Source of the DNA: a virus
Taxonomy: Duplodnaviria > Heunggongvirae > Uroviricota > Caudoviricetes
Direction: 5' to 3' (one strand)
DNA length: 11,205 bases
Virus record (IMG/VR): IMGVR_UViG_2711768052_000003
Coordinates: 1 to 11,205 of that record
The translations under genes and the position numbers were made by a program. Each line of letters starts with the position of its first letter. Position 1 is the first letter of the stretch. Of the stretch, positions 22 to 10,920 are shown one piece after another. The notes below the pieces were generated by a model that was not told the DNA's origin, made no database searches, and worked only from the letters and a program-made list of their open reading frames with translations.

Positions 22-75
22 TGGCCGTTTCCGGCCTGCATGGCATGATTTGCGCTTTTGGACGGGAGATTCAGC

Positions 76-675
76 GTGCTGATTGGCTATGTAAGGGTAT
101 CAACAAATGACCAGAATACAGACTTGCAACGAAACGCTCTTGTTTGTGCAGGATGCGAACAAATATTTGAAGATAAATTAAGCGGGACAAAGACAGACCG
201 ACCGGGATTAAAACGCGCTTTAAAGCGCCTTCAAAAAGGTGACACGCTGGTTGTCTGGAAACTGGATCGCCTCGGGCGAAGCATGAAACATCTGATTTCT
301 CTCGTCGGGGAACTACGGGAGCGAGGGATTAATTTTCGCAGTCTGACCGACAGCATAGATACATCTTCTCCAATGGGGCGTTTTTTCTTCCACGTGATGG
401 GTGCCCTGGCTGAAATGGAACGTGAATTAATTGTTGAACGTACACTGGCCGGACTGGCGGCAGCGCGCGCACGGGGGCGCACAGGCGGACGTCGACCGAA
501 GCTGACAAAAGAACAGCATGAGCAAATAGCAAGGCTAATCAAAAACGGGCACGACAGAAAACAACTGGCAATAATTTACGGCATTGGCACATCGACGATT
601 TATCGTTATCACCCTGTAGGCGATATACAGACTGAAGAAACAACCGGGCAGACTCAGGAAAATGAAAACCGCTAA
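76..675 (+). CDS. Site-specific serine DNA invertase, Gin/Pin/Hin/Cin family
   Basis: The translation MLIGYVRVSTNDQNTDLQRNAL...VVWKLDRLGRS...GINFRSLTDSIDTSS.MGRFFFHVMGALAEMERELI has the catalytic Ser at position 9, the resolvase/invertase core and a C-terminal HTH (IYGIGTSTIYRY). GGGAGA at 64-69 is a plausible RBS for GTG at 76. The track ORF begins at TTG 58, which I consider less likely. Confidence 0.9.
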   Translation: MLIGYVRVSTNDQNTDLQRNALVCAGCEQIFEDKLSGTKTDRPGLKRALKRLQKGDTLVVWKLDRLGRSMKHLISLVGELRERGINFRSLTDSIDTSSPMGRFFFHVMGALAEMERELIVERTLAGLAAARARGRTGGRRPKLTKEQHEQIARLIKNGHDRKQLAIIYGIGTSTIYRYHPVGDIQTEETTGQTQENENR

Positions 676-703: not shown

Positions 704-1192
704 TCAGAACAGCCCTTTAACTGAACTGGCCGCGCTGTTAAGAGATGATGTCACCTTATCTTTGAAGCCGGACAGCATATCACTGAACGATGAGGATTGC
801 AGGCGCTCCCGCAAATCCTCATCACAGCGTTCAAGGGTCAGTGAAAATTCTATCTTTTTCGCCTTACCGTAGCGATCAAACTCGGAACGGGTCGTATTCG
901 TTTCAGTCAGCACATACATGCCGTAAATCTGCCCGACGCCATCAATCAGAGGCCAGGGTCGTCCTGTATACGCCTGCGTGGTCAGCAGCGACAGCGATAC
1001 TTCGCCACCTGTAATTTCAGGATAAAGCACACCAGAAAGAACGATGCGATCATCTCCTGCACCGATATACTGCCAGCTTGCTGAACGGTTAACGCGTTCA
1101 TTTTTCACATGCCGCCAGCTTTTGTTTTGCTGTAACTGCTGATGCGGCAGCGTGCGCAGCTCAAAAACAAACATGCCGTAGATCATCATCAT
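704..1192 (-). CDS. U: P2 gpU-like tail protein (tail terminator/completion)
   Basis: The translation MMMIYGMFVFELRTLPHQQL...WRH...VLSGVLYPEITGG...WPLIDGVGQIYGMYV fits the P2 gpU family pattern as I recall it. GAGGAG lies 8 nt upstream of ATG at 1192; the track start at 1198 would leave only a 2-nt spacer. Confidence 0.8.
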   Translation of the reverse strand: MMMIYGMFVFELRTLPHQQLQQNKSWRHVKNERVNRSASWQYIGAGDDRIVLSGVLYPEITGGEVSLSLLTTQAYTGRPWPLIDGVGQIYGMYVLTETNTTRSEFDRYGKAKKIEFSLTLERCDEDLRERLQSSSFSDMLSGFKDKVTSSLNSAASSVKGLF

Positions 1193-1204
1193 GGCCATGA
1201 CTCC

Positions 1205-4048
1205 TCAATCTTTATCGTAAAAACTGCCACGCCCGGCACGGGCGCGCCGTTCCATTTCTGCCCTGACCATTTCACCTACCAGTTTCGCAAGTTCGCGGGG
1301 ATTCTGCGTAACAACGTTATGCAGATGAACATGAATTTCACCGCCAAATCCGGAGGCAACCGGCTCCCGATTACGGGAAGCTGCAGGAACTGATGCCACT
1401 GGCGATCGTATGGCCTCCGCCACCGGGCGGGAGCTGGCCGCAACAACAGGGACCAGCGCCGGAGGCAGCGGAGCCGGGACCACGGGTGTGATATTAATTG
1501 CGGGGGCAGGCTTACTGACCTGCGCAATCTTCCGCTCCTGCCACTCCCCACGAACGGCAAGTGCGCGGGGCAGGTTCTTAAAGACAATATCGCCGGGGCC
1601 AATGCGTTTTTTCGTCTCATCAACCAGCTTACCTGTGTTATCAGCAATTTTGCTGAGTCTGCGCAGCGTACCGGTATTGCTGTCTGTGAGCGGTTTATTG
1701 TCTTTGGGGTTATCACCTCCGGTACCATTGCCATTTTCCACAGGCTTCGGCGGATTGATTTTCGCCAGGTCCCCCTGAAGCAAGGCAACCTTGTCCTGAA
1801 GAATGGCCGCACGCTGTGCGTCTTCGATTTTCTTGCGCGCCCTTTCCGCTTCATCCGGAAGGACGCCAAGTTTTTCAAGTATCCACGCCAGCGTATCCAG
1901 CAGCATTTTTGCAGGTGTCAGAACAAGCTGTAACGCACCGCCAAGAACGTTACCGAATATCTCGCCAGCACTGGTACATTTATCCAGCGTTTCCTTGCTG
2001 GACTCCATCGGTGACAGCAGCGATTTAAACCAGTTAAACACCTGGCTGATCCCGCTCCCGATTGCGTCAAAAACAGGACCAAACCGTTCAAAAGTTTCGC
2101 GCAACGGGGTCAGCCTTTCCATAATCCCGCTGAACACCCCGGCAAAAAATGCCCTGATGGGATCCCAGTATTTCCAGATAAGAACGGCAGCTCCGGCAAG
2201 CGCAGCCACGATAAGACCAACCGGACTGAACAACGCCCCGATAGCGCCTCCCAGCAAAGAAACGGACCCCGTCACCATTCCCCATAGTGCTGGCAGGACC
2301 CTGACAGCATTCATTGATCCGGTCAGGAGAGAAAAACCAAGACGCAGTTTTGCCAGCGGACCAGCAAGCACACCAATAGCCAGCGACAACGAGCCAACCG
2401 TTGCAGTCATTGCCAGCAACGCACCGCCTGCTATCAGTAGCTGGCGCGTCAGTGCCGGATGGGCCTGCGCCAGCGCCGTCACCCTTGATACCACCCGCGT
2501 GAGCCACTGCGTGACAGAACGCAGCGAACCGTCAATCAGATCTGCAATGCGGATGCGCAACCCTTCCCATGCACTGCCGAGTGATTTCAGATCGCCGTCA
2601 AGGTTGTTGGCCATAACCTTTGCTGTGCGTTCAGCCTCACCGCGCGCGCCTTCAAGTTCTTTTCTCAGTTTGGGTAAGGAACCGTCACCCGCTGCATCAA
2701 CGAGCGCCATAAACGATGTGAAAGCCTCTTCTCCGGCAATGTCCTTAAAGAACGATACCCGGTCAACTTCCCCGTATTTGCGGGTGGCTTTATAAAGGTC
2801 GGCCAGCACATCCTCCATCGGGCGCATTTTGCCCCCGGCATCCGAGACGGACACGCCCAGCTCTTTCAGAGCTTCTGCCGCCGCCTTTGGCGGTGATGCC
2901 AGACGAGCCAGGCTGGCACGCATTGCCGTCCCGGCATCACTCCCTCTGATGCCCATATTCGCCAGCACGCCAGCCATCGCTGCGGCCTGCTCCAGCGATA
3001 TTCCCAGCTTCCCCGCCACCGGACCTGCATATTTCATGGTTTCGCCCAGTGCGCGAAGGTCAGTGTTGGTACGGGTAAACGCTGCGGTGAGTGTGTCACC
3101 GACCCGGTCCATCTGGTCAGCAGAAAGGCCGAACTGCGTCAGGATATTTGAGCCAATATCTGCCGTCTCGCCGAGATCCATACCGCCAGCCGTTGCCATG
3201 CTCAGCACGCCGGGAAGCGCAGCCTGAATGGCCTGCGGAGTGAAGCCAGCCATTGCAAGAAATGCCTGTCCACTGGCGGCATCGCCTGCGGTGAACTGCG
3301 TTTCAGAGCCAAGTTTTAACGCCTGCTCGCGCAGCGCTTTAAACTGCGGGCTGTTCTGGTCGATTCGCGTCAGTGCCTGAACGCGGGACATCTCTTTGCC
3401 GAACCCGATCGCAGGCTGCAAAAAACGCCCGGCAGCATAGCCGCCCGCCGCTGCCGCACCAATTGCCAGCGCACCACCTGTTTTCAGTTTTTCCGCTGTT
3501 TCCTGCGCGCGCGAATACCGCTCACGCGCCCGCGTTACACGCGCAAGCGCCTGCCGTTCGCGTTCAAGCTGGTTGTTGTATTGTTCGGTGCGTCTGATGG
3601 CCTGCTGGATGGTGTTATCGCTGCCTGTCAGGGAAATGCCGTGGCGTTTCAGCTCTCCGCCAAGCTCCCGCATTTTCTGAATTTCCCGTGTGCGCGATTC
3701 ATTCAGGCGTTCAAGCCGGGTGCTTAACTGCTGCATCAGCTTTTGTTGTTTTTCGCTGAGCACTGTACCCGTGCGTTGTAACTGATTAAGGGCGTTAAGC
3801 TGGCGTCGTGCTTTCACGATACCCGCATCCGCTTTACTGACAGCGTCGCGGGCGCGCTCAAATGAACGCGCCTGACGCTCGAGATTTTTGATCGCCCCCT
3901 GCGTTCGCTGGATGGAGTCACCAAACTGCCCCATCAGGCGGCGTGCGTTTTCGGCAGGTCGGGTCAGCCTGTCAACGGCGCTGAAAGCGACCCGGATATC
4001 AAGAGTCTTCATTGTCTGCATTCCCGCTGCGAAGTGCCGCCCGCTCAC
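1205..4048 (-). CDS. T: Tail tape measure protein (P2 gpT-like)
   Basis: A 947-aa ORF with an Ala/Gly/Leu/Arg-rich, coiled-coil-like N-terminal half (repeated ERxRxA, QQL motifs) and a central hydrophobic segment sits between the E/E' chaperone genes and gpU. The start is uncertain: GTG at 4048, or ATG at 4021 or 4012. Confidence 0.8.
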   Translation of the reverse strand: MSGRHFAAGMQTMKTLDIRVAFSAVDRLTRPAENARRLMGQFGDSIQRTQGAIKNLERQARSFERARDAVSKADAGIVKARRQLNALNQLQRTGTVLSEKQQKLMQQLSTRLERLNESRTREIQKMRELGGELKRHGISLTGSDNTIQQAIRRTEQYNNQLERERQALARVTRARERYSRAQETAEKLKTGGALAIGAAAAGGYAAGRFLQPAIGFGKEMSRVQALTRIDQNSPQFKALREQALKLGSETQFTAGDAASGQAFLAMAGFTPQAIQAALPGVLSMATAGGMDLGETADIGSNILTQFGLSADQMDRVGDTLTAAFTRTNTDLRALGETMKYAGPVAGKLGISLEQAAAMAGVLANMGIRGSDAGTAMRASLARLASPPKAAAEALKELGVSVSDAGGKMRPMEDVLADLYKATRKYGEVDRVSFFKDIAGEEAFTSFMALVDAAGDGSLPKLRKELEGARGEAERTAKVMANNLDGDLKSLGSAWEGLRIRIADLIDGSLRSVTQWLTRVVSRVTALAQAHPALTRQLLIAGGALLAMTATVGSLSLAIGVLAGPLAKLRLGFSLLTGSMNAVRVLPALWGMVTGSVSLLGGAIGALFSPVGLIVAALAGAAVLIWKYWDPIRAFFAGVFSGIMERLTPLRETFERFGPVFDAIGSGISQVFNWFKSLLSPMESSKETLDKCTSAGEIFGNVLGGALQLVLTPAKMLLDTLAWILEKLGVLPDEAERARKKIEDAQRAAILQDKVALLQGDLAKINPPKPVENGNGTGGDNPKDNKPLTDSNTGTLRRLSKIADNTGKLVDETKKRIGPGDIVFKNLPRALAVRGEWQERKIAQVSKPAPAINITPVVPAPLPPALVPVVAASSRPVAEAIRSPVASVPAASRNREPVASGFGGEIHVHLHNVVTQNPRELAKLVGEMVRAEMERRARAGRGSFYDKD

Positions 4049-4528
4049 GCCAGCTAACCACTTCGCCGGGCGTCATCATGAAGATTTCGGCGGGCGACCA
4101 GTTAAAAATAACGGCAATATCTGCCACAAAGTCTTCTATGTGCTCAAAGCACACAACCGTGATCAGGCTTCCGTCGCCTGTTCGTTCTTCCCGCCAGAGT
4201 CCGCACCGCTCAAAAAATTTACGGCAACCACACATAACTGAATAAAGTCACGGGATGCCATTTTTTTGATCGTCACTTCATCCAGTCGCGGTGATGTCAC
4301 GCGTGACAGCAGCGTAAACATGGATTCCGCTTTCAGACTCAGCACATCAGACAGCGACAAATCTCGCAGAGATCCAGCCTGCTCAATAGCCCCGGTGATC
4401 TCCACATACGTGATTTTTTCGCCGCTTCGCTCAATTGGTTGGGTAAGTTTTACGCCACGCTCACTGGTTTCTTTCACAGTGTCAGTAACTACCGTGTTTT
4501 CGGTATCGATGTTTTTCGTCTCTTTCAT
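3999..4528 (-). CDS. E+E' fusion chaperone made by programmed -1 frameshift (inferred)
   Basis: The minus-strand slippery heptamer TTTTTTG (plus coordinates 4217-4211) lies inside E. The -1 frame stays open from there to 3999 (track ORF 3999-4235 is in the -1 frame relative to E) and overlaps the T start, as in the P2 E/E' and lambda G/GT arrangements. Confidence 0.55.
4163..4528 (-). CDS. E: Tail assembly chaperone gpE-like (short product)
   Basis: A 121-aa ORF lies between FII and T, the position of P2 E. AAAGGAG sits 7 nt upstream of ATG at 4528. A TTTTTTG slippery heptamer lies 18 codons before its stop. Confidence 0.75.
   Translation of the reverse strand: MKETKNIDTENTVVTDTVKETSERGVKLTQPIERSGEKITYVEITGAIEQAGSLRDLSLSDVLSLKAESMFTLLSRVTSPRLDEVTIKKMASRDFIQLCVVAVNFLSGADSGGKNEQATEA
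4211..4217 (-). other. T6G slippery heptamer for the E to E' -1 ribosomal frameshift
   Basis: The plus strand reads CAAAAAA at 4211-4217, which is TTTTTTG on the coding (minus) strand. Frame arithmetic places the downstream open frame at -1. Confidence 0.55.
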
Positions 4529-4582: not shown

Positions 4583-5095
4583 TCAGCCAAGCCCAAGCGC
4601 GGAACGGATGCGATCGGGCACAATGTCCTTGCCGTCCTTCCGGTAAATGAAGTTCAGCAGGTCAATCTCCCACAACGGGCGATCGTTAACACTCAGCTTG
4701 TAGTAGGTGTTTTTAATGGCATAAGTGTGTGATGTGGCTTCGCCCTGTTTGGCTTCCCCCATATCAATTTCCGTCACACGTCCGCGCATTTCGACTTCAT
4801 ACAGGTCGCTTTCTGCATCGGTGTAGTATTCACCCGCAAAACGCAGCAGTGTGCCGTCAATCGTGCCGCCATACTTAAGGAACAGCTCACGAACTGCGCC
4901 CCCCATGACAAAGCTCGCATCAAGCGCTGAGTCGTCCAGGCCGAGATCAATACTTACCGCCCCCATCATGCCACCACCCCGGTAGCTGTCGGTTTTGCGC
5001 GTCAGCTTAGGCAAAGTGACGGACGTCACCTTACCCACTTCGTTTTCACCATCCACAAACAGCGTAAAAAAGCGAAGATGTTTTGGCACAGCCAT
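4583..5095 (-). CDS. FII: Tail tube protein (P2 gpFII-like)
   Basis: A 170-aa ORF, MAVPKHLRFF...VTLPKLTRK...YRGGGM...IDLGLDD...LRFAGEY...VEMRGR...EIDMGE, has the size and motifs of the FII tube family. GGGAGG RBS precedes it, and its ATG overlaps the FI stop as TGATG (plus 5093-5097). Confidence 0.9.
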   Translation of the reverse strand: MAVPKHLRFFTLFVDGENEVGKVTSVTLPKLTRKTDSYRGGGMMGAVSIDLGLDDSALDASFVMGGAVRELFLKYGGTIDGTLLRFAGEYYTDAESDLYEVEMRGRVTEIDMGEAKQGEATSHTYAIKNTYYKLSVNDRPLWEIDLLNFIYRKDGKDIVPDRIRSALGLG

Positions 5096-6279
5096 CAGGC
5101 ACCTCCCAGCACCGCAAATGCGGGTTCAAAGTATTCATCAGTAAACGTCTGGTAAAGCTCCATGTCTTCCAGTGGCGGAACGGGCGTATATTTGTAGCGA
5201 ATACGCACACGCCCCTGACGTAAATCCGTGGTGCTGTTATCCACCACGTCATACCAGCACTCCGCGCCAATCAGTTTCCCGGCAGTCACCAGTGAATCCA
5301 GTTTTGCCCTGATGGCGCTGATAACATCCTTCACGTTCGCAGGCGTCAGTGGACTGTCGATGGTTTCAAACTGCGCTTCCGCAATTGAATCAGCCAGCAC
5401 CTGTGCGGTTCGGGTATACACCTCAAAAATGTAGGCGTTCGTTTCCGGTGTGCGGTTGCCCCAGAAGCGGAACCCGTTGCGACGAATAATGGTCGTGATT
5501 TCTTTGTTGTTGAGGCTGTTGGCATCGCTGTCTTCGGCCTGCAACGACCAGAACACATGCCTCGACATCCCCAGCACATTTTTAACCGGAACGTTGGACA
5601 GCGATTTGTGCCAGCCCTGCTCATGGTCAATGTACGCACGAAGGCCGCACGCATAAGCAGGCGCGGGGAACGTTTCGTTTTCGCCACTTTTCGGGTTGTA
5701 GGCGATGAAGTCCGGCCATAAGAGCATCACTTCACGTTCGTTGAATTTCTGGCGGTAGGTAATCGCTTCAGCCATCGTGTTACAGCCGTGACATGAGGCA
5801 TACACAAATGCGCGCAGTTTACCCGCAATCACGCACAGGGATTTTGTCACCGCCTCCGTGTCCAGCTCCGGCGCGGCCAGAATACGCGGACGGTATCCGA
5901 TGCTTTCATCCTGCTCTGCAACAAGCAGCGCATACATCCCCGTATAGCTGCCGTCATCCTCAGAACCACCGATAACCAGTTGATCCTGCGTCTTTTCGTC
6001 TTCTTCTTTGTGTTCAGCCACGCGAACGACGATCACCTTTGTGCTCACCTGGTCTGCGATGGCCTTAAGCGCACGATAAAGCGTCCCCGTTGTTCCGCAT
6101 TTTCCCAGCACGTCATTGACGCGGGTCAGCAGTGTGGGCTTGTTCAGCGGGAACAGCTTCGCGTCCGCATCATCCGCCGTTGCCACGATACCGATAACGC
6201 TGGAATCAACATCGTTAATCGCTGTTACCAGGTCGGTATTTTCCGTAACACGGGCACCATGAAAACGAGTTTCACTCAT
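5095..6279 (-). CDS. FI: Contractile tail sheath protein (P2 gpFI-like)
   Basis: A 394-aa ORF has motifs that match P2 FI as I recall it: FPLNKP, LRAFVYAS, WPDF, EQGWHKSLSNV, IRRNGFRFWGNRT, YTRTAQV and YKYTPVPPLE. AAGGGG RBS lies 8 nt upstream of ATG at 6279. Confidence 0.9.
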   Translation of the reverse strand: MSETRFHGARVTENTDLVTAINDVDSSVIGIVATADDADAKLFPLNKPTLLTRVNDVLGKCGTTGTLYRALKAIADQVSTKVIVVRVAEHKEEDEKTQDQLVIGGSEDDGSYTGMYALLVAEQDESIGYRPRILAAPELDTEAVTKSLCVIAGKLRAFVYASCHGCNTMAEAITYRQKFNEREVMLLWPDFIAYNPKSGENETFPAPAYACGLRAYIDHEQGWHKSLSNVPVKNVLGMSRHVFWSLQAEDSDANSLNNKEITTIIRRNGFRFWGNRTPETNAYIFEVYTRTAQVLADSIAEAQFETIDSPLTPANVKDVISAIRAKLDSLVTAGKLIGAECWYDVVDNSTTDLRQGRVRIRYKYTPVPPLEDMELYQTFTDEYFEPAFAVLGGA

Positions 6280-6436: not shown

Positions 6437-7546
6437 ATGACCGACACCACCATGCAATTGCTCAGTCAGGGCACAGACCCCGTGAAAATGCCGGATTTTG
6501 ATATTCTCGCCGAGGGTAAAACGCTGTCCGGCGTGGCAGAACGCCTGATGAGCCTGTCACTGACCGACAACCGGGGATTTGAGGCGGACCAGCTCACCAT
6601 CACGCTGGATGATGCCGATGGCCAGTTGCAGCTACCGCCACGGGGCGCGCGTCTGACGGTTCTCATTGGCTGGAAAGGGGAACCGCTGACAGAAAAAGGC
6701 ACTTACATTGTTGATGAAATCGCTCACGAAGGACCGCCGGACAGGCTGACTGTTTCAGCCAGAAGCGCAGATTTTCGGGATGAATTTAACGTTAAACGTG
6801 AGGTGTCCTGGCATGATGTGACCGTTGAGCGTGTGGTATCCGCCATCGCTCATCGGTATGGTCTGAAACCGCAAATCAGCGAAATGCTGATGGATATCGA
6901 AATCGACCACGCCGACCAGACCGAAGAAAGCGACATGTCCTTCCTTACGCGCATGGCGGAAATGCTGGGCGCAATCACCACGGTAAAAAGCGGTAATCTG
7001 TTATTCATCATGCCCGGAGGTGGCGTGAACGCGCAGGGCCAGCCGTTGCCCTCGTTCGCCATCACACGCAGCAGCGGCGATCGCCATCAGTTCCGCATTG
7101 CTGACCGCGAGGCGTATACGGGTGTACGCGCCTACTGGCTTGATCTTAATTACGGGAAAAAGAAAAAAGTCAGCGTGAAACGCCGCAAACCGCCAAAACC
7201 CAAAAAGGAGAAAAGCAGCAGCCGCGAAGGTGACTATATGGAAGGTGCGGAAGGCAACGTATTTGTGTTACGCAAGACTTATCAGAACGAGCAGGCAGCA
7301 AGACGCGCAGCGGCGGCAAAGTGGCAGCAGCTACAACGCGGAGCCGCATCATTTTCCATCACGCTGGCACGTGGACGCGCAGAACTCTACCCCGAAATGC
7401 ATGGCACGGTAACAGGATTTAAAAGCGAGATTGATAATCAGGACTGGATTATTGCAAAAGCCGAGCACACCATTGATAACAGCGGCTTTACCACGCAGCT
7501 TGAGCTTGAGGCAAAAATCCCGGAATGGATAGCAGAAACAGAGTGA
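6437..7546 (+). CDS. D: P2 gpD-like tail/baseplate hub protein (late control gene D family)
   Basis: The translation MTDTTMQLL...SLSLTDNRGFEADQLTITLDDADG...RSADFR...SWHD...FLTRMAE...ITRSSGDRHQFRIADREAYTGV...KKKK...EGDYMEGAEGNVF...QRGAASFSITLARGRAELYPE...FTTQLELEA agrees closely with my recollection of P2 gpD. GGGAGGGA RBS lies at 6425-6432. The track ORF extends to 6305 but has no RBS-supported start there. Confidence 0.85.
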   Translation: MTDTTMQLLSQGTDPVKMPDFDILAEGKTLSGVAERLMSLSLTDNRGFEADQLTITLDDADGQLQLPPRGARLTVLIGWKGEPLTEKGTYIVDEIAHEGPPDRLTVSARSADFRDEFNVKREVSWHDVTVERVVSAIAHRYGLKPQISEMLMDIEIDHADQTEESDMSFLTRMAEMLGAITTVKSGNLLFIMPGGGVNAQGQPLPSFAITRSSGDRHQFRIADREAYTGVRAYWLDLNYGKKKKVSVKRRKPPKPKKEKSSSREGDYMEGAEGNVFVLRKTYQNEQAARRAAAAKWQQLQRGAASFSITLARGRAELYPEMHGTVTGFKSEIDNQDWIIAKAEHTIDNSGFTTQLELEAKIPEWIAETE

Positions 7547-7934
7547 GCAATTTTGATACATTAGATTAAACATGGGCGCAACACTTACGACACAGAGTAA
7601 ACCTGATCTGCCAGTCACTTCTGCACCAAGAGCGAAAATTTATGACAGCGCTATGTGTTTATCTCCCCGAAAAGCTCAGTCAAATAGTAATTTGTCAAAT
7701 CCCCACTCAGTATCAATAGAGATAGTTGACCGAGTGTGCTCAAAGCCATACCTGCCACGATGAGCTTTGCATAACAGACTTGTTTTTTTAGGTGATTTTC
7801 GTTATAAATTTTCAGCGTTGCTTAGATGTTATGTGTTTATGCTCAATATGCAAATTTTGAGTTTTTTGTGGCTATATTATAACATTAATAGCAACATCTC
7901 TATGATTGCTTTATTTAAATGGATGAATTTGAAA

Positions 7935-10037
7935 ATGAGAGCATATCATAATGACCAACCTATACTAGGCGGTCAAAATGATCCAGACTTACTAAATAGA
8001 CTTACCTTTGCAAATAATTTGGCAAATATTTTACTATTAAATAACGACGATGATTGTTTCACTGTATCTATAGAGGCTGAGTGGGGATATGGTAAAACGT
8101 CAGTCATAAATCTTATAAAAAATGCCTTAAATGAAAAGGACTCCTTACCCATTATAATAGAATATAATCCATGGTTGGCTGGCCAACCTGAATCCTTGAT
8201 TCAAGATTTTTTATTGCAGTTTTCTTCACAACTAAATATTAAAGACAAATCAAAAGTTGCATTAAAAGTATCAAAAGAGCTAATTGCATACTCTAGCCTC
8301 TTTAGTGCTGCTAAACTTATCCCTGGAGCAGAACCATGGGCATCTATCATAGAAAAATCTCTTTCAAGATTTGGACATGCTACTAAAAAAATAGCTGAGT
8401 TAAAAAAACTTGATCTTTTAGATAGAAAAAAACAAGTGGCTAATGCGATAAAAAAAATAAAACATCCTATAATTGTAATAATTGATGACATTGATCGTTT
8501 AACACCCTCTGAGGCTTTTCAAGTTTTACGGTTAGTCAAAGCTGTTGCGAATTTCTCAGGCACTTCTTTTTTACTTGCATTTGATCCTAATTACCTAATT
8601 TCTGTGCTTGATAAAAATAACATTATAAATCCGTCAGAATATATTAATAAGATTGTTCAACTTCGAGTTTCACTTCCCGTAATTTCAGAAAGAGGACTGA
8701 ATGAAATCGCAAATTCAGAGCTTGAAAAACTAGGTGATAGTTTTTTAACTGATAAATTTGAAAAAGATCAAGAAAGATTAGATTGGATTTACCATAATTA
8801 TTTCAAGCAATTAATTAATAATCCAAGAGAGTTGAAAAGGTTTTTCAACCACTTGAGATTTACTTTAGAGCAAATTAAAGGTCAGGTGTGTTCTTCAGAT
8901 CTTTTTTCTTTATCTCTAATCGCAACCAAATCAAATTTAATTTATGAGCATATAAAGAATACTCCTGAAGCGTACATTGGGAATAGATTAACCATCAATA
9001 ATTTGTTAATGAATAAACATCAAGATATTATAAAGCATTATAGCCATGAACGATGCAATAAACTAAATATTTTTTCTCAACGAGAACGTACATTGATGCA
9101 GGGGCTATTAGAGTATATTTTCCCTCTTCTACGCCCCAATCAATCTTATCCTTATGATGTATCTGATTCAGATGCAGCAGGAAGAATTTCTGCCCCCCAA
9201 AGACTTCATATTGCCCTTCATTTTAAAACTCCAGTAGGATATATTTCCGATCATGACATTCTTCTTTTCATCGAAGGGAAAATTAATAGAGAAAAATTCC
9301 TTGAGGATGTGTTATCTCAAAATGCCGAGGAAAGATTTTTCGAAATGATGAATATTTATACAGACGCTTGTTGTAAAGTTGATAGTTTTAATATATTAAC
9401 GTGCATTTATGATAGATTTCTTTTCTCTCAAGAGTTAAAATCTTCATTAGAAAAAAACTATGGTCTCATTAGAGAAGATTCTTATAGAAGGATGTATTGG
9501 CTCACTGATAAAATTATATCTGAAAGTAGTGAGCAATATGAGCTAATAAAAAAAATTATTGGTCGATATGAGAATGCGCCACTTGGAGCAGAAGTACTAT
9601 ACAACGTACGAAACTCAAGTAATATACAGATTAATAAAGATCAGATTGTTGAACTTGAGAATGTCTTCAAAGAAACAGCTACTATTGCTTTAAATAAAAA
9701 AATATTTTTTGACTATCATCTAGAATCAAATATATTTTTCGAATTAAAGAGAATCTCTGTTGAATTCACATCAGAATTTCTTGCTTCCATCTTATCAGAA
9801 GATGGCATAATTAGATTGTGTGAAATTATTGGTGAAACTGGTAGAGATTCAACGAATGGCCCTTATGTTATTTTTGACGAACATTATTTTGGGGAAATAC
9901 TTGATGTAGATGAGGTTAGAAATAAAGCTAAAAACATAGATATTTCAAAGCATCCGACTCGCATTCAAGCTGTACTTAAGAGCATTGCAGATGGAAAAAA
10001 ATATTATTTAAGAGATGCAACAATTAGCTTAAAATAG
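7935..10037 (+). CDS. KAP-family P-loop NTPase; candidate anti-phage/exclusion protein
   Basis: Walker A is AEWGYGKTS (8082-8102), followed by the KAP-typical NPW (IIIEYNPW), Walker B IIVIIDDIDRL (8472-8501), LLAFD, and an NPRELKRFFN motif (8820-8849). About 300 C-terminal residues carry no motif I recognise. The gene is strongly AT-rich against GC-rich flanks. The start is ambiguous: in-frame ATGs at 7902, 7923 and 7935, none with a strong SD (GGA 9 nt before 7935); the track ORF begins at TTG 7767. Confidence 0.7.
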   Translation: MRAYHNDQPILGGQNDPDLLNRLTFANNLANILLLNNDDDCFTVSIEAEWGYGKTSVINLIKNALNEKDSLPIIIEYNPWLAGQPESLIQDFLLQFSSQLNIKDKSKVALKVSKELIAYSSLFSAAKLIPGAEPWASIIEKSLSRFGHATKKIAELKKLDLLDRKKQVANAIKKIKHPIIVIIDDIDRLTPSEAFQVLRLVKAVANFSGTSFLLAFDPNYLISVLDKNNIINPSEYINKIVQLRVSLPVISERGLNEIANSELEKLGDSFLTDKFEKDQERLDWIYHNYFKQLINNPRELKRFFNHLRFTLEQIKGQVCSSDLFSLSLIATKSNLIYEHIKNTPEAYIGNRLTINNLLMNKHQDIIKHYSHERCNKLNIFSQRERTLMQGLLEYIFPLLRPNQSYPYDVSDSDAAGRISAPQRLHIALHFKTPVGYISDHDILLFIEGKINREKFLEDVLSQNAEERFFEMMNIYTDACCKVDSFNILTCIYDRFLFSQELKSSLEKNYGLIREDSYRRMYWLTDKIISESSEQYELIKKIIGRYENAPLGAEVLYNVRNSSNIQINKDQIVELENVFKETATIALNKKIFFDYHLESNIFFELKRISVEFTSEFLASILSEDGIIRLCEIIGETGRDSTNGPYVIFDEHYFGEILDVDEVRNKAKNIDISKHPTRIQAVLKSIADGKKYYLRDATISLK

Positions 10038-10262
10038 TGATAACAGGTGATTTATTTTATTATTTGAAGTGATGAAATATACTCTTCACTACATTTAATG
10101 CACTGATTATCAAATAGAGATAGGTGTCGCATGAAAGAGACTATTGATGTGGCACCGGTAGTCTCATTTCCGACATTACTCCAGAAGAGGTGATTCGTTA
10201 TTAATAGATAATTTTAACCACTTCGCTAGACGTATCATTTTTCGTTTGTTGCTCAAAACTCA

Positions 10263-10291
10263 TTGGCAGTTAAAGTCTGAACCAGTACAAC
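10263..10291 (+). promoter_or_regulatory. Putative sigma70-type promoter for ogr
   Basis: TTGGCA (10263-10268), a 17-bp spacer, then TACAAC (10286-10291), about 40 bp upstream of the ogr ATG. This is a by-eye match only. Confidence 0.25.
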
Positions 10292-10328
10292 TTAGAATGG
10301 CACCAACATTACGTTAAGGGAGGTCGCT

Positions 10329-10589
10329 ATGTTCCGTTGTCCGCTTTGTGGCGCATCTGCCCGTATCCGCACCAGTCGTCCGGAAAATGATTCAAACACC
10401 GTGCGGCAAAAGTATTACCAGTGTAACAATCTGGAATGCGGCGTATGCTTCTCAACACTGGAAGCTTTCCATAAATTCACATCGAAACACGCCTCCGGCG
10501 TTCACTCTTCAGAAGGTATCCCGTGGCATGAGCTGCCAGCTTCACACAGGGGAAACAATCAGATGAGTTTGCCTTTGCCTCAGAATTAA
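10329..10589 (+). CDS. ogr: Ogr/Delta-family zinc-finger late transcription activator
   Basis: The N-terminus MFRCPLCGASARIRTSR...YYQCNNLECGVCFSTLE has the CxxC...CxxxxC arrangement and resembles P2 Ogr as I recall it (MFHCPLC...RTSR...YHQC.N..C...F). AAGGGAGG RBS lies at 10316-10323. Confidence 0.85.
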   Translation: MFRCPLCGASARIRTSRPENDSNTVRQKYYQCNNLECGVCFSTLEAFHKFTSKHASGVHSSEGIPWHELPASHRGNNQMSLPLPQN

Positions 10590-10649
10590 CAGGCAGAATT
10601 GCCGGAGCAACAAAAAAGCGATAGATTACGCGCGGGTGCCTTTCGGCTG

Positions 10650-10862
10650 ATGGTCGGAGGGAATACCCGAAGGCCAGATGTGGAAAGGCCCCGGAAAACA
10701 TCTCTGTTTAACCGAGGCCCTAACCGCATTACCTTGACAAGTGAAAGGTTAGCGCCTCTCCGGAAAAGGAGCAAGTGCTATGTCGCAAAAATCGCTTACG
10801 GCCATCACGTTCTGTGTGACGGCAATCCTCATCATCTGGATGTTGCACGGTTCGCTGTGTGA
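10650..10862 (+). CDS. Possible mok-like overlapping leader ORF of the hok locus
   Basis: A 70-codon frame from ATG 10650 overlaps the 5' two-thirds of the hok-like ORF in another frame and ends inside it, as mok does in hok/sok loci. It has no strong SD, and the track ORF begins at TTG 10599. Confidence 0.3.
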   Translation: MVGGNTRRPDVERPRKTSLFNRGPNRITLTSERLAPLRKRSKCYVAKIAYGHHVLCDGNPHHLDVARFAV

Positions 10863-10920
10863 AATACGGATGAGCTTCTGGGGAGCGGAGTTTGCGGCGT
10901 TCTTACAGTGTAAGCAGTAA
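10780..10920 (+). CDS. Hok/Gef-family type I toxin (small membrane peptide)
   Basis: A 46-aa ORF, MSQKSLTAITFCVTAILIIWMLHGSLCEIRMSFWGAEFAAFLQCKQ, has an N-terminal hydrophobic helix and the SLCEIR...E.AAF motif, which aligns without gaps to Hok (…[21 protein letters not shown]…) and HokA as I recall them. AAAGGAG RBS at 10765-10771. It is below the length cutoff of the supplied ORF track. Confidence 0.7.
   Translation: MSQKSLTAITFCVTAILIIWMLHGSLCEIRMSFWGAEFAAFLQCKQ

Follow-up and report, generated by a model that had tools for sequence, protein, structure and literature searches.

The DNA considered in our study is an 11,205-nucleotide stretch of a tailed-phage record (IMGVR_UViG_2711768052_000003, Caudoviricetes), referred to here as the window, and all coordinates are window positions unless a locus label (L followed by a number) is given. 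Judged by DNA identity, its backbone is a P88-like (Xuanwuvirus, P2-family) prophage of Escherichia coli; the window shows 94-98% DNA identity with P88-like phages of Xuanwuvirus and Gemsvirus (Peduoviridae) and, over 10 kb, 96.9% identity with a prophage of E. coli strain 100181, which is integrated beside ihfA-pheT. Between the tail gene D and the late-gene activator gene ogr lies an AT-rich block with a single long gene, which encodes a KAP-family P-loop NTPase. This block is a foreign, intact single-gene accessory ("moron") cassette sitting in a cargo hotspot of the prophage. The genes, motifs and open reading frames (ORFs) at the locus are as follows.

6446-7546, plus strand: gene D (tail/baseplate hub), left anchor of the hotspot (Pfam Phage_GPD, E = 4e-17; P88 annotation).
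7572-7763, plus strand: 63-codon ORF that is unlikely to be a gene (no match in Pfam, PADLOC or PHROGs; unannotated in RefSeq relatives).
7935-10037, plus strand: gene of a KAP-family P-loop NTPase of 700 amino acids (aa) (Pfam KAP_NTPase; PADLOC PifA; 425 homologs of about 707 aa; AlphaFold2).
8073-8102, plus strand: Walker A motif EAEWGYGKTS, aa 47-56 (G51, G53, K54, T55 and S56 invariant in 34 homologs).
8469-8498, plus strand: Walker B motif IIVIIDDIDR, aa 179-188 (D184, D185, I186, D187 and R188 invariant in 34 homologs).
10131-10193, plus strand: 20-codon ORF, with no support as a gene or gene fragment.
10329-10589, plus strand: ogr (late-gene activator, zinc finger), right anchor of the hotspot (Pfam Ogr_Delta, E = 5e-14; RefSeq relatives).

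The break in base composition at this block is real and large. In 300-nucleotide (nt) sliding windows the G+C content was found to be 0.52-0.58 at 6900-7500, 0.28-0.34 from about 7650 to 10200 and 0.50-0.54 after 10350, and the insert as a whole (7548-10288) has a value of 0.32 in comparison to 0.54 and 0.50 in its flanks. The KAP gene shows a G+C of 0.312 and a third-position G+C (GC3) of 0.215, as against 0.49-0.575 and 0.52-0.61, respectively, in the tail genes U, T, E, FII, FI and D; the value for ogr is 0.494. With the tail genes as the reference, codon adaptation of the KAP gene is 0.48, while the tail genes themselves reach 0.67-0.77, and a maximum-likelihood two-state composition fit placed the boundaries at 7765 and 10315. 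The AT-rich block with a sharp break that had been reported in the first-pass annotation is thus borne out by sliding-window G+C, by per-gene G+C and GC3 and by codon adaptation, at essentially the coordinates given there.

The limits of the insert were defined against the empty site of phage P88, in which only 41 bp separate the D stop from the ogr ATG (GAGTGAG-GAACTTAGAATAGCGACAGCACCACGTTAAGGGAGGTCGCT-ATG). Compared with this site the window has 2,741 extra bases, from 7548 to approximately 10288, and these hold one gene (7935-10037). The site is empty in P88 and in 64 of 131 sampled cases, which upholds the earlier view of a horizontally acquired cassette exactly at the D/ogr junction. No relative was seen to have this gene here in a host-like composition; what the relatives hold between D and ogr is either nothing or other AT-rich cargo. 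The stretches of intermediate G+C at the two ends (7548-7766, 0.425; 10125-10328, 0.402) had been taken for remnants of the old intergenic region, and this did not stand. Because the insert as measured against the P88 empty site starts at 7548, the moderate-GC flanks lie inside it; they are missing from the empty site and are cassette-borne, as framing sequences common to most cargo types. Conserved frame parts aside, 7548-7934 and 10038-10288 occur only together with the KAP gene of the window. The 20-codon ORF had likewise been suggested as a gene fragment; the stretch that contains it (10038-10288) matches only identical copies of the cassette. The 63-codon ORF overlaps the conserved non-coding element T1, which is described below.

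A further claim of the first-pass annotation, that the block was recently acquired from a low-GC donor, is not supported by the wider comparison. Low G+C is no proof of recent acquisition and composition is no clock here, because the KAP gene is AT-rich in all hosts whatever their own G+C (0.31-0.375 in all those examined, also in Serratia and Aeromonas, where the flanks have 0.55-0.61) and also in a second E. coli paralog diverged by about 20% in DNA; moreover, the cargo types of this site are generally low in G+C. A recent direct transfer from a low-GC donor, with the moderate-GC flanks left from the original D-ogr intergenic region, would agree with the sharpness of the break and with the rarity of the exact cassette, which was found in 3 of 5,426 complete E. 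coli genomes (98.5-99.1% identity) and in two viral contigs, as a young or rare allele might be. On the other hand, no low-GC donor lineage is seen among the 425 homologs, and all of those with an organism-named source are from Gammaproteobacteria; the part of this explanation that concerns the flanks is already contradicted by the empty site. Such a recent transfer is considered very improbable.

To sample the junction, viral contigs were scanned with the ogr-start sequence and pooled with the loci compared before, giving 131 usable D-ogr intervals. The 64 empty sites have 74 nt between the anchors used, and the 67 occupied ones fall into 24 cargo clusters, 23 of which have a G+C of 0.33-0.42; the one outside this range is probably mis-anchored. 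Among complete E. coli genomes, the site was found to hold no cargo, a GmrSD nuclease, a PIN-domain protein, an HxsDBCA His-Xaa-Ser radical-SAM cluster, YecA, ParA, DUF3800, a 1,039-aa protein annotated as an MFS transporter or one of several hypothetical genes. Recognised defence genes among the cargo are GmrSD, the PIN-domain protein and the PifA-like KAP gene, the roles of DUF3800, HxsDBCA and others being unproven. The D/ogr junction of P88-like prophages is hence a rich cargo hotspot with about half of its sites filled, in which one position between core genes takes many unrelated cargos and also has an empty state. The established P2-family hotspots are likewise fixed between core genes, with an empty state and many mostly AT-rich cargos that include known defence genes, and the KAP family is also present at one of them (A/Q). 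D/ogr differs in the junction itself, which belongs to P88-like phages; lying between D and ogr, it is neither of the described P2 hotspots (A/Q and Z/fun). The hotspot literature examined does not name the D/ogr junction, and "ogr" is absent as a word from the survey of P2/P4 defence (PMC13586616, NAR 2026) and from the hotspot preprint, whose "third hotspot" may or may not be the same site. The hotspot appears to be undescribed at this junction and, being about half occupied with at least 24 cargo types, offers a ready source of candidate systems. As a separate observation, the D/ogr site of some E. coli prophages carries a complete His-Xaa-Ser system of hxsD, hxsB, hxsC and hxsA, two of which are radical-SAM maturases (L007 1129-4526); a role of this system in phage defence is a possibility.

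The KAP ORF is open from 7767, with in-frame ATG codons at 7902 (annotated as the start in RefSeq relatives), 7923 and 7935. The last of these is taken as the conserved start, giving 700 aa, because the paralog in L002 has ATA at the equivalent of 7923 with homology starting at 7910. The product matches Pfam KAP_NTPase (PF07693) with E = 6.2e-47 and 160.7 bits (cut-off 20) over profile positions 3-289 of 293, corresponding to aa 24-310 counted from the ATG at 7935 (aa 28-314 of the 704-aa translation from the ATG at 7923). An N-terminal KAP domain (about aa 16-355) is followed by a C-terminal alpha-helical-repeat domain (about aa 360-700) that is conserved within, and specific to, the family. 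The core of both Walker motifs (GYGKTS at aa 51-56 and IIDDID at aa 182-187) is intact, with residues that are invariant in the 34 homologs compared, and the NTPase half is accordingly predicted to be catalytically competent. Transmembrane helices within the NTPase domain are typical of many KAP members, not of all. No transmembrane helix is predicted in the window protein, the highest Kyte-Doolittle 19-residue mean being 1.27 (usual threshold 1.6), and the segment inserted between Walker A and Walker B is amphipathic and helical; the protein is thus predicted to be soluble.

The C-terminal half gave no match in Pfam, NCBIfam, PHROGs, PADLOC or the PDB sequences. AlphaFold2 modelled it with confidence as almost wholly helical (predicted local distance difference test, pLDDT, of 80-96 over about aa 440-700); the N-terminal half was poorly modelled owing to a shallow alignment. 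A Foldseek search of the model against the PDB gave a best E value of 0.16. Since neither the sequence nor the helical model finds a match, the C-terminal half looks like an interaction or sensor module and not like an enzyme. The best defence-system match of the protein is to the PADLOC PifA model (PDLC02361; E = 8.8e-65), which is confined to profile positions 3-353 of 720, and the matches to QatA and PDC-S20 are weaker.

The family comprises 425 homologs of about 707 aa, which are alike from end to end with an identity of 63-76%. They were found in Escherichia, Salmonella, Enterobacter, Klebsiella, Yersinia, Serratia, Vibrio, Aeromonas, Shewanella, Photobacterium and others. No close relative of the KAP gene was found on plasmids, the nearest being plasmid pifA at 26.9% identity (tblastn) over aa 44-351. 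A paralog that is 79.5% identical in DNA is present in at least 18 E. coli genomes, and in the one inspected (L002) it occupies the P2 hotspot between the replication gene A/DinI and the portal gene Q of a different P2-like prophage, where it is followed by a small hypothetical gene and then by a gene for a RES-domain (RES-family) NAD+ phosphorylase (L002 8026-11821). The A/Q hotspot of Serratia has a 64% identical homolog as its only cargo, and in Vibrio (V. vulnificus) and Aeromonas the homolog forms a lone single-gene islet between housekeeping genes. The KAP gene is always found to move as one gene, and its distribution is patchy.

Three single-gene KAP systems provide the frame for reading its function. 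PifA of the F plasmid excludes T7, acting by abortive infection of T7 and T3 with the products of gene 1.2 and gene 10 as triggers and with membrane leakage (cited in PMC13552941). The enterococcal EF_KAP confers phage resistance that needs Walker B and the C-terminal region and is reportedly not abortive infection (PMC13552941, PLoS Biol 2026), and "Reve", from P4 hotspots, protects E. coli from phages (PMC13586616). PifA resembles the window protein as a single large protein of about 700 aa with an N-terminal KAP P-loop NTPase, carried on a mobile element; the homology does not run over the full length, the C-terminal half being unrelated, and PifA sits in the pif operon, whereas the window gene is prophage-borne. 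EF_KAP and Reve share the architecture of a single gene in a mobile-element hotspot, with a KAP NTPase and an uncharacterised C-terminal region (PMC13552941; PMC13586616). EF_KAP was modelled with two transmembrane helices (PMC13552941), unlike the window protein; Reve was compared by description only, and no C-terminal relationship in sequence to the KAP defences was demonstrated. The gene is not part of a QatABCD system, as its protein scores 44 bits with the NCBIfam QatA model (cut-off 600) and the cassette holds one gene only. The KAP gene of the window is one more uncharacterised single-gene KAP-NTPase family among the candidate anti-phage systems.

These comparisons suggest that the KAP gene is probably an anti-phage defence expressed from the prophage. 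In such a system the helical C-terminal domain would sense a component of the infecting phage and the KAP NTPase would act as a switch, so that infection would be blocked, either through abortive infection in the manner of PifA or, as reported for EF_KAP, with no death of the cell; the sequence does not tell which. Association argues for this function, as the paralog lies beside a RES-domain gene at the A/Q defence hotspot and the Serratia homolog stands alone at the same hotspot. Several points weigh against it. The assignment draws on association and on distant homology for a 707-aa family, with a similarity to PifA that is confined to the NTPase half. No effector domain could be recognised by Pfam, NCBIfam, PHROG and fold searches. 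Further, the scan of the cassette gave no excess of promoter-like sites in the AT-rich DNA over shuffles (14 against 13.1), and no terminator-like sites.

A foreign accessory gene with another role, in membrane signalling, in element maintenance or addiction or in plasmid exclusion, has to be weighed against defence. The founding description of KAP proteins proposed membrane-associated signalling, and phage exclusion is perhaps not the primary function of PifA (PMC13552941); no effector domain was found, and the YecA, ParA and MFS-transporter-annotated cargos at D/ogr are not established defences. This alternative is nevertheless held to be unlikely, as GmrSD, PIN and DUF3800 genes occupy the same site, the paralog is found in the best-validated P2 defence hotspot, the match to the PADLOC PifA model is strong, anti-phage activity has been measured for three independent single-gene KAP systems and the gene moves alone with a patchy distribution. 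With defence as the probable function, our finding is a familiar AT-rich defence moron in a prophage hotspot, combined with an interesting and unexplained cassette frame.

The architecture of this frame was obtained by comparing both ends of the interval over 23 cargo types (alignment A4), and the junctions were also compared with P88 and 14 other loci. In the window the frame consists of the following parts, of which only T1 and the predicted promoter have a strand.

7548-7557: left copy of a direct repeat of about 10 bp, CAATTTTGAT (consensus CAACTTAGAT; junction comparison with P88 and 14 loci).
7558-7571: left arm of the terminal inverted repeat, ACATTAGATTAAAC (consensus GTATTAGCTCAGAC; alignment A4).
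7584-7634, plus strand: left boundary element T1, a decayed copy (nhmmer, E = 8.6e-4 in 1.5 Mb).
10249-10269: weak remnant of the right boundary element T2, TTGCTCAAAACTCATTGGCAG (consensus TCGCTCAAAGCGGACTGTCAG; alignment A4 only).
10270-10298, plus strand: predicted ogr promoter, with -35 TTAAAG (10270-10275), a 17-nt spacer and -10 TAGAAT (10293-10298) (conservation pattern).
10275-10288: right arm of the terminal inverted repeat, GTCTGAACCAGTAC, inside the promoter spacer (alignment A4).
10288-10298: right copy of the direct repeat, CAACTTAGAAT, which contains the -10 box (junction comparison).

The shared frame is present whatever the cargo, which lies in either orientation. On the left, the D stop is followed by CAACTTAGAT, then by GTATTAGCTCAGAC and then by about 100 nt of conserved sequence; on the right the order is ...TCGCTCAAAGCGGACTGTCAG-TTGGAG-TCTGAGCTAGTA-CAACTTAGAAT-AGCG..., after which comes ogr. 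Empty sites contain exactly one copy of the direct repeat of about 10 bp. The 14-bp inverted repeat is in register, with 63.8% of cells paired in comparison to 30-38% when the partner columns are slid. It is the sequence of its arms that is conserved, and not their pairing through compensatory changes: covariation is at most marginal, as the observed values were attained by 13/500 and 26/500 shuffles, and the pairing of matched arms is no stronger than that of mismatched ones (p = 0.48). On these two grounds a long-range RNA helix between the cassette ends was rejected as a selected structure. The left frame is also not a decayed duplicate, or long repeat, of the ogr leader and 5' end (mean z of 0.5, with 0/21 above 3), and a tRNA-like origin of the TAGCTCAG arm was dismissed, as ARAGORN found nothing and Rfam gave no family in the cassette, the only notable match being a sok RNA downstream of ogr.

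The consensus of T1 reads ...ACAGAACCAAACCTAATCTGACA-GTCCGCTCTGTGCCAGAAGCGGAC, or ...AACCTAATCTGACA-GTCCGCTCTGTGCCAGAAGCGGAC, and bears a palindrome with the core GTCCGCT-N8-10-AGCGGAC. Profile hidden Markov models of T1 and T2 were built without the window sequence. The T1 profile detects, besides the copy in the window, 12 of the 24 D/ogr cargo types at E <= 0.01, and the window copy aligns to the T1 of the P2 Z/fun hotspot. Some right frames (those of L008 and L059, about 100 nt before ogr, and L144 7203-7290 and L148 4741-4830) were additionally seen to be longer by a segment of about 33 nt, GTTTGATTGCATTCTGGTTACGCAAACTGCCAG, which lies between T2 and the -35 box with a repeated CTGYCAG on either side; right frames of this variant are also found at the P2 Z/fun hotspot.

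The conservation pattern at the right end points to a promoter. Over the 130 sites compared, a conserved -10 box (TAGAAT or a close variant) starts 36 nt ahead of the ogr start codon in 55 of the 66 occupied ones, the window among them, and it has the identical sequence in all 64 empty ones. At a spacing of 17 nt, a -35 box of the form TTGGAG, TTGGAA or TTGGAT is present in 56 of the 66 occupied sites, whereas the empty sites have only ATAGCG or ATAGCA at this position, which there lies within the D coding sequence. The invariant columns of the right frame in alignment A4 are TTG and T-A-n-A-A-T, 17 nt apart. The right end of the cassette thus appears to supply the -35 box of a sigma-70 promoter of ogr, the right repeat copy containing the -10 box, and this predicted role is well supported by the pattern of conservation. 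As the cassette brings its own -35 box, insertion should not cut ogr off from a promoter, which would explain how the phage tolerates insertions directly upstream of this key regulator. A different idea, in which CGCTCAAAGCGGAC of the right frame pairs with ogr codons 4-8 (GTCCGCTTTG) and silences read-through transcripts by folding back, was rejected on duplex energies; the duplex is no better than interior windows or shuffles (-16.6, -16.6 and -19.1 kcal/mol), and 0/23 have z < -2. It may be added that the core GTCCGCTTTGT of T1 and T2 is also found inside ogr at 10339-10349 (codons 4-8), in the Cys-Pro-Leu-Cys codons of the zinc finger, where a regulatory pairing is unsupported.

The frames are not restricted to D/ogr. 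With a query made from the frame only, a T1 piece of 40-47 nt was found in 420 of 5,426 E. coli genomes, always in unannotated DNA, with a median of 1 and a maximum of 2 copies in the genomes that have it; the cassette ends as a high-copy repeat, similar to repetitive extragenic palindromes (REP) or miniature inverted-repeat transposable elements (MITE), were rejected on this count. All six T1 contexts inspected outside D/ogr lie at the edges of variable regions. They comprise the P2 Z/fun hotspot, which is situated between the genes for tail-fibre assembly and for the sheath and holds either a hypothetical gene with DUF3800 or DUF4145; chromosomal islands of the Ag43/YeeP type in three genomes, each with a cargo of its own, of which one includes ParA; and one further island. 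In 7/7 loci outside D/ogr, T1 (plus strand) is followed 1.2-3.4 kb downstream by T2 (plus strand), and the two bracket the cargo; among these loci are a tandem T1-A-T2.T1-B-T2 array and the A/Q hotspot with the KAP paralog, which has T1 upstream of it. The bracketed loci are listed below.

L144 3985-7230
L145 3993-6816
L146 3996-6472
L147 3496-6955
L148 3485-4766
L149 3489-5234
L002 7673-10398

Since the same T1...T2 frame surrounds unrelated cargo at Z/fun, at A/Q and in chromosomal islands, the frames probably travel with the cassettes, and they would supply short homology that lets cargo swap between hotspots. Exchange by homology-driven swapping through the frames and the flanking genes is the mechanism that we favour. 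Occupancy showed weak linkage to single-nucleotide polymorphisms (SNPs) at distances of up to about 35-100 nt from the junction, and none to those more than 300 nt away. The weakness and short range of this linkage, which does not discriminate between mechanisms of exchange, count against our interpretation, as does the decayed state of the frame in the window, where the -35 box reads no better than TTAAAG, 3 of the 10 positions of the left repeat copy are mismatched and the T2 profile does not detect the T2 remnant, the element being too short.

The frames could instead be the recombination sites of a dedicated mobilising system, with a trans-acting site-specific recombinase or a transposase-like enzyme working at the core of about 10 bp. 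The direct repeat that flanks an inverted repeat and is single in empty sites would agree with this, and so would the 14-bp/9-bp/14-bp palindromic site that would result if the termini were joined end to end, and the bracketing of cargo by T1 and T2 in unrelated elements, including the tandem array. The recent survey, moreover, could not explain the movement of defence genes between such elements (PMC13586616). No recombinase is linked to the cassettes, however, the only one in the window being a serine invertase of the tail-fibre type 7 kb away. The lack of convincing compensation between the arms, the low copy number of T1 and the part that the ogr promoter plays in explaining at least some of the right repeat copy and adjacent bases tell in the same direction, and some linkage of occupancy to SNPs near the junction is what homologous exchange would give. 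A dedicated enzyme of this kind is judged to be somewhat unlikely, and homology-driven swapping is retained as the favoured mechanism.

We propose tentatively, as a possibility still short of probable, that the T1...T2 cassettes are a previously undescribed cassette system of enterobacterial mobile elements, which carries single accessory or defence genes with portable ends: a left end with the GTCCGCT-N8-10-AGCGGAC palindrome and a right end with an outward -35 box. Exchange among P88-like D/ogr, P2 Z/fun, P2 A/Q and Ag43/YeeP-type islands would then proceed by short homology or by an enzyme at the core of about 10 bp. A paper by Nilsson et al. of 2004 (Mol Biol Evol 21:1) reportedly concerns a related idea, going by its title, and may already describe related repeats. 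The survey of P2/P4 elements left open how defence genes are exchanged without transposons or shared flanking genes, and repeats are unmentioned in it (PMC13586616). The T1/T2 frames make this question testable and could explain gene movement between mobile elements; if the cassette system is real, it would account for the shuttling of defence genes between elements with no flanking genes in common.

In their logic the T1...T2 cassettes are similar to integron cassettes, which are also promoter-poor single genes of unrelated function with partly palindromic conserved ends and possible tandem arrangement. The likeness is one of analogy only: by eye there is no GTTRRRY core site (the conserved GTTGGAG and GTTGGAA misfit at position 7) and no integrase is annotated beside the cassettes. 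Moreover, an integron cassette has one attC, whereas the T1...T2 cassettes have two different ends, cargo in either orientation and no convincing covariation of the folded-strand type. The dif modules of Acinetobacter plasmids are flanked by XerC/D-like sites. With insertion sequences and MITEs the cassettes share 14-bp terminal inverted repeats inside a direct repeat of about 10 bp that is single-copy when the site is empty, as a target-site duplication would be. Insertion sequences with outward-facing -35 boxes form hybrid promoters, and the -35 at the right end of the cassette would similarly pair with a -10 in the target to drive the downstream gene. They differ in that no transposase was found in any cassette inspected, T1 has at most two copies per genome and insertion is always at the same site.

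The remaining genes of the window belong to the phage backbone and are given below.

58-675, plus strand: serine recombinase/invertase (Pfam).
704-1198, minus strand: gpU (Pfam).
1205-4048, minus strand: tape measure protein (Pfam).
4163-4528, minus strand: 121-aa ORF with no Pfam match; its position and length are those of the E-type tail protein gene annotated in L001 and P88.
4583-5095, minus strand: tail tube (Pfam).
5095-6279, minus strand: tail sheath (Pfam).

The tail block from FI to U is opposite in strand to D and ogr; a rearrangement was considered and rejected, as this is the normal gene order of P88. The D ORF is open from 6305, and its start was set by the 1,101-nt D of P88; the gene is 97% identical in DNA to that of P88-like phages. 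RefSeq relatives often have D as an 801-nt "VgrG/Pvc8 family" coding sequence, cut short and accompanied by a small pseudogene fragment (L001 11394-12247), and as the frame is intact (about 1,101 nt) in the window and in P88, the short D of the relatives may be an issue of annotation or of frameshift. Directly downstream of ogr lies a toxin-antitoxin locus of the hok/sok type (10634-10793 and 10780-10920, both plus strand). The match to Rfam sok RNA has 48.4 bits (E = 5.6e-9), under the gathering score of 59, and the 46-aa ORF that overlaps the 3' end of sok is Hok-like by eye; a Hok/Gef family protein is annotated after ogr in relatives (L001 15482-15622). At the other end of the window, the recombinase gene adjoining gpU is of the Hin/Gin type, and a related prophage has two opposed sets of tail-fibre and assembly genes just upstream of its recombinase (L001 2652-5368), which suggests an invertible host-range segment.

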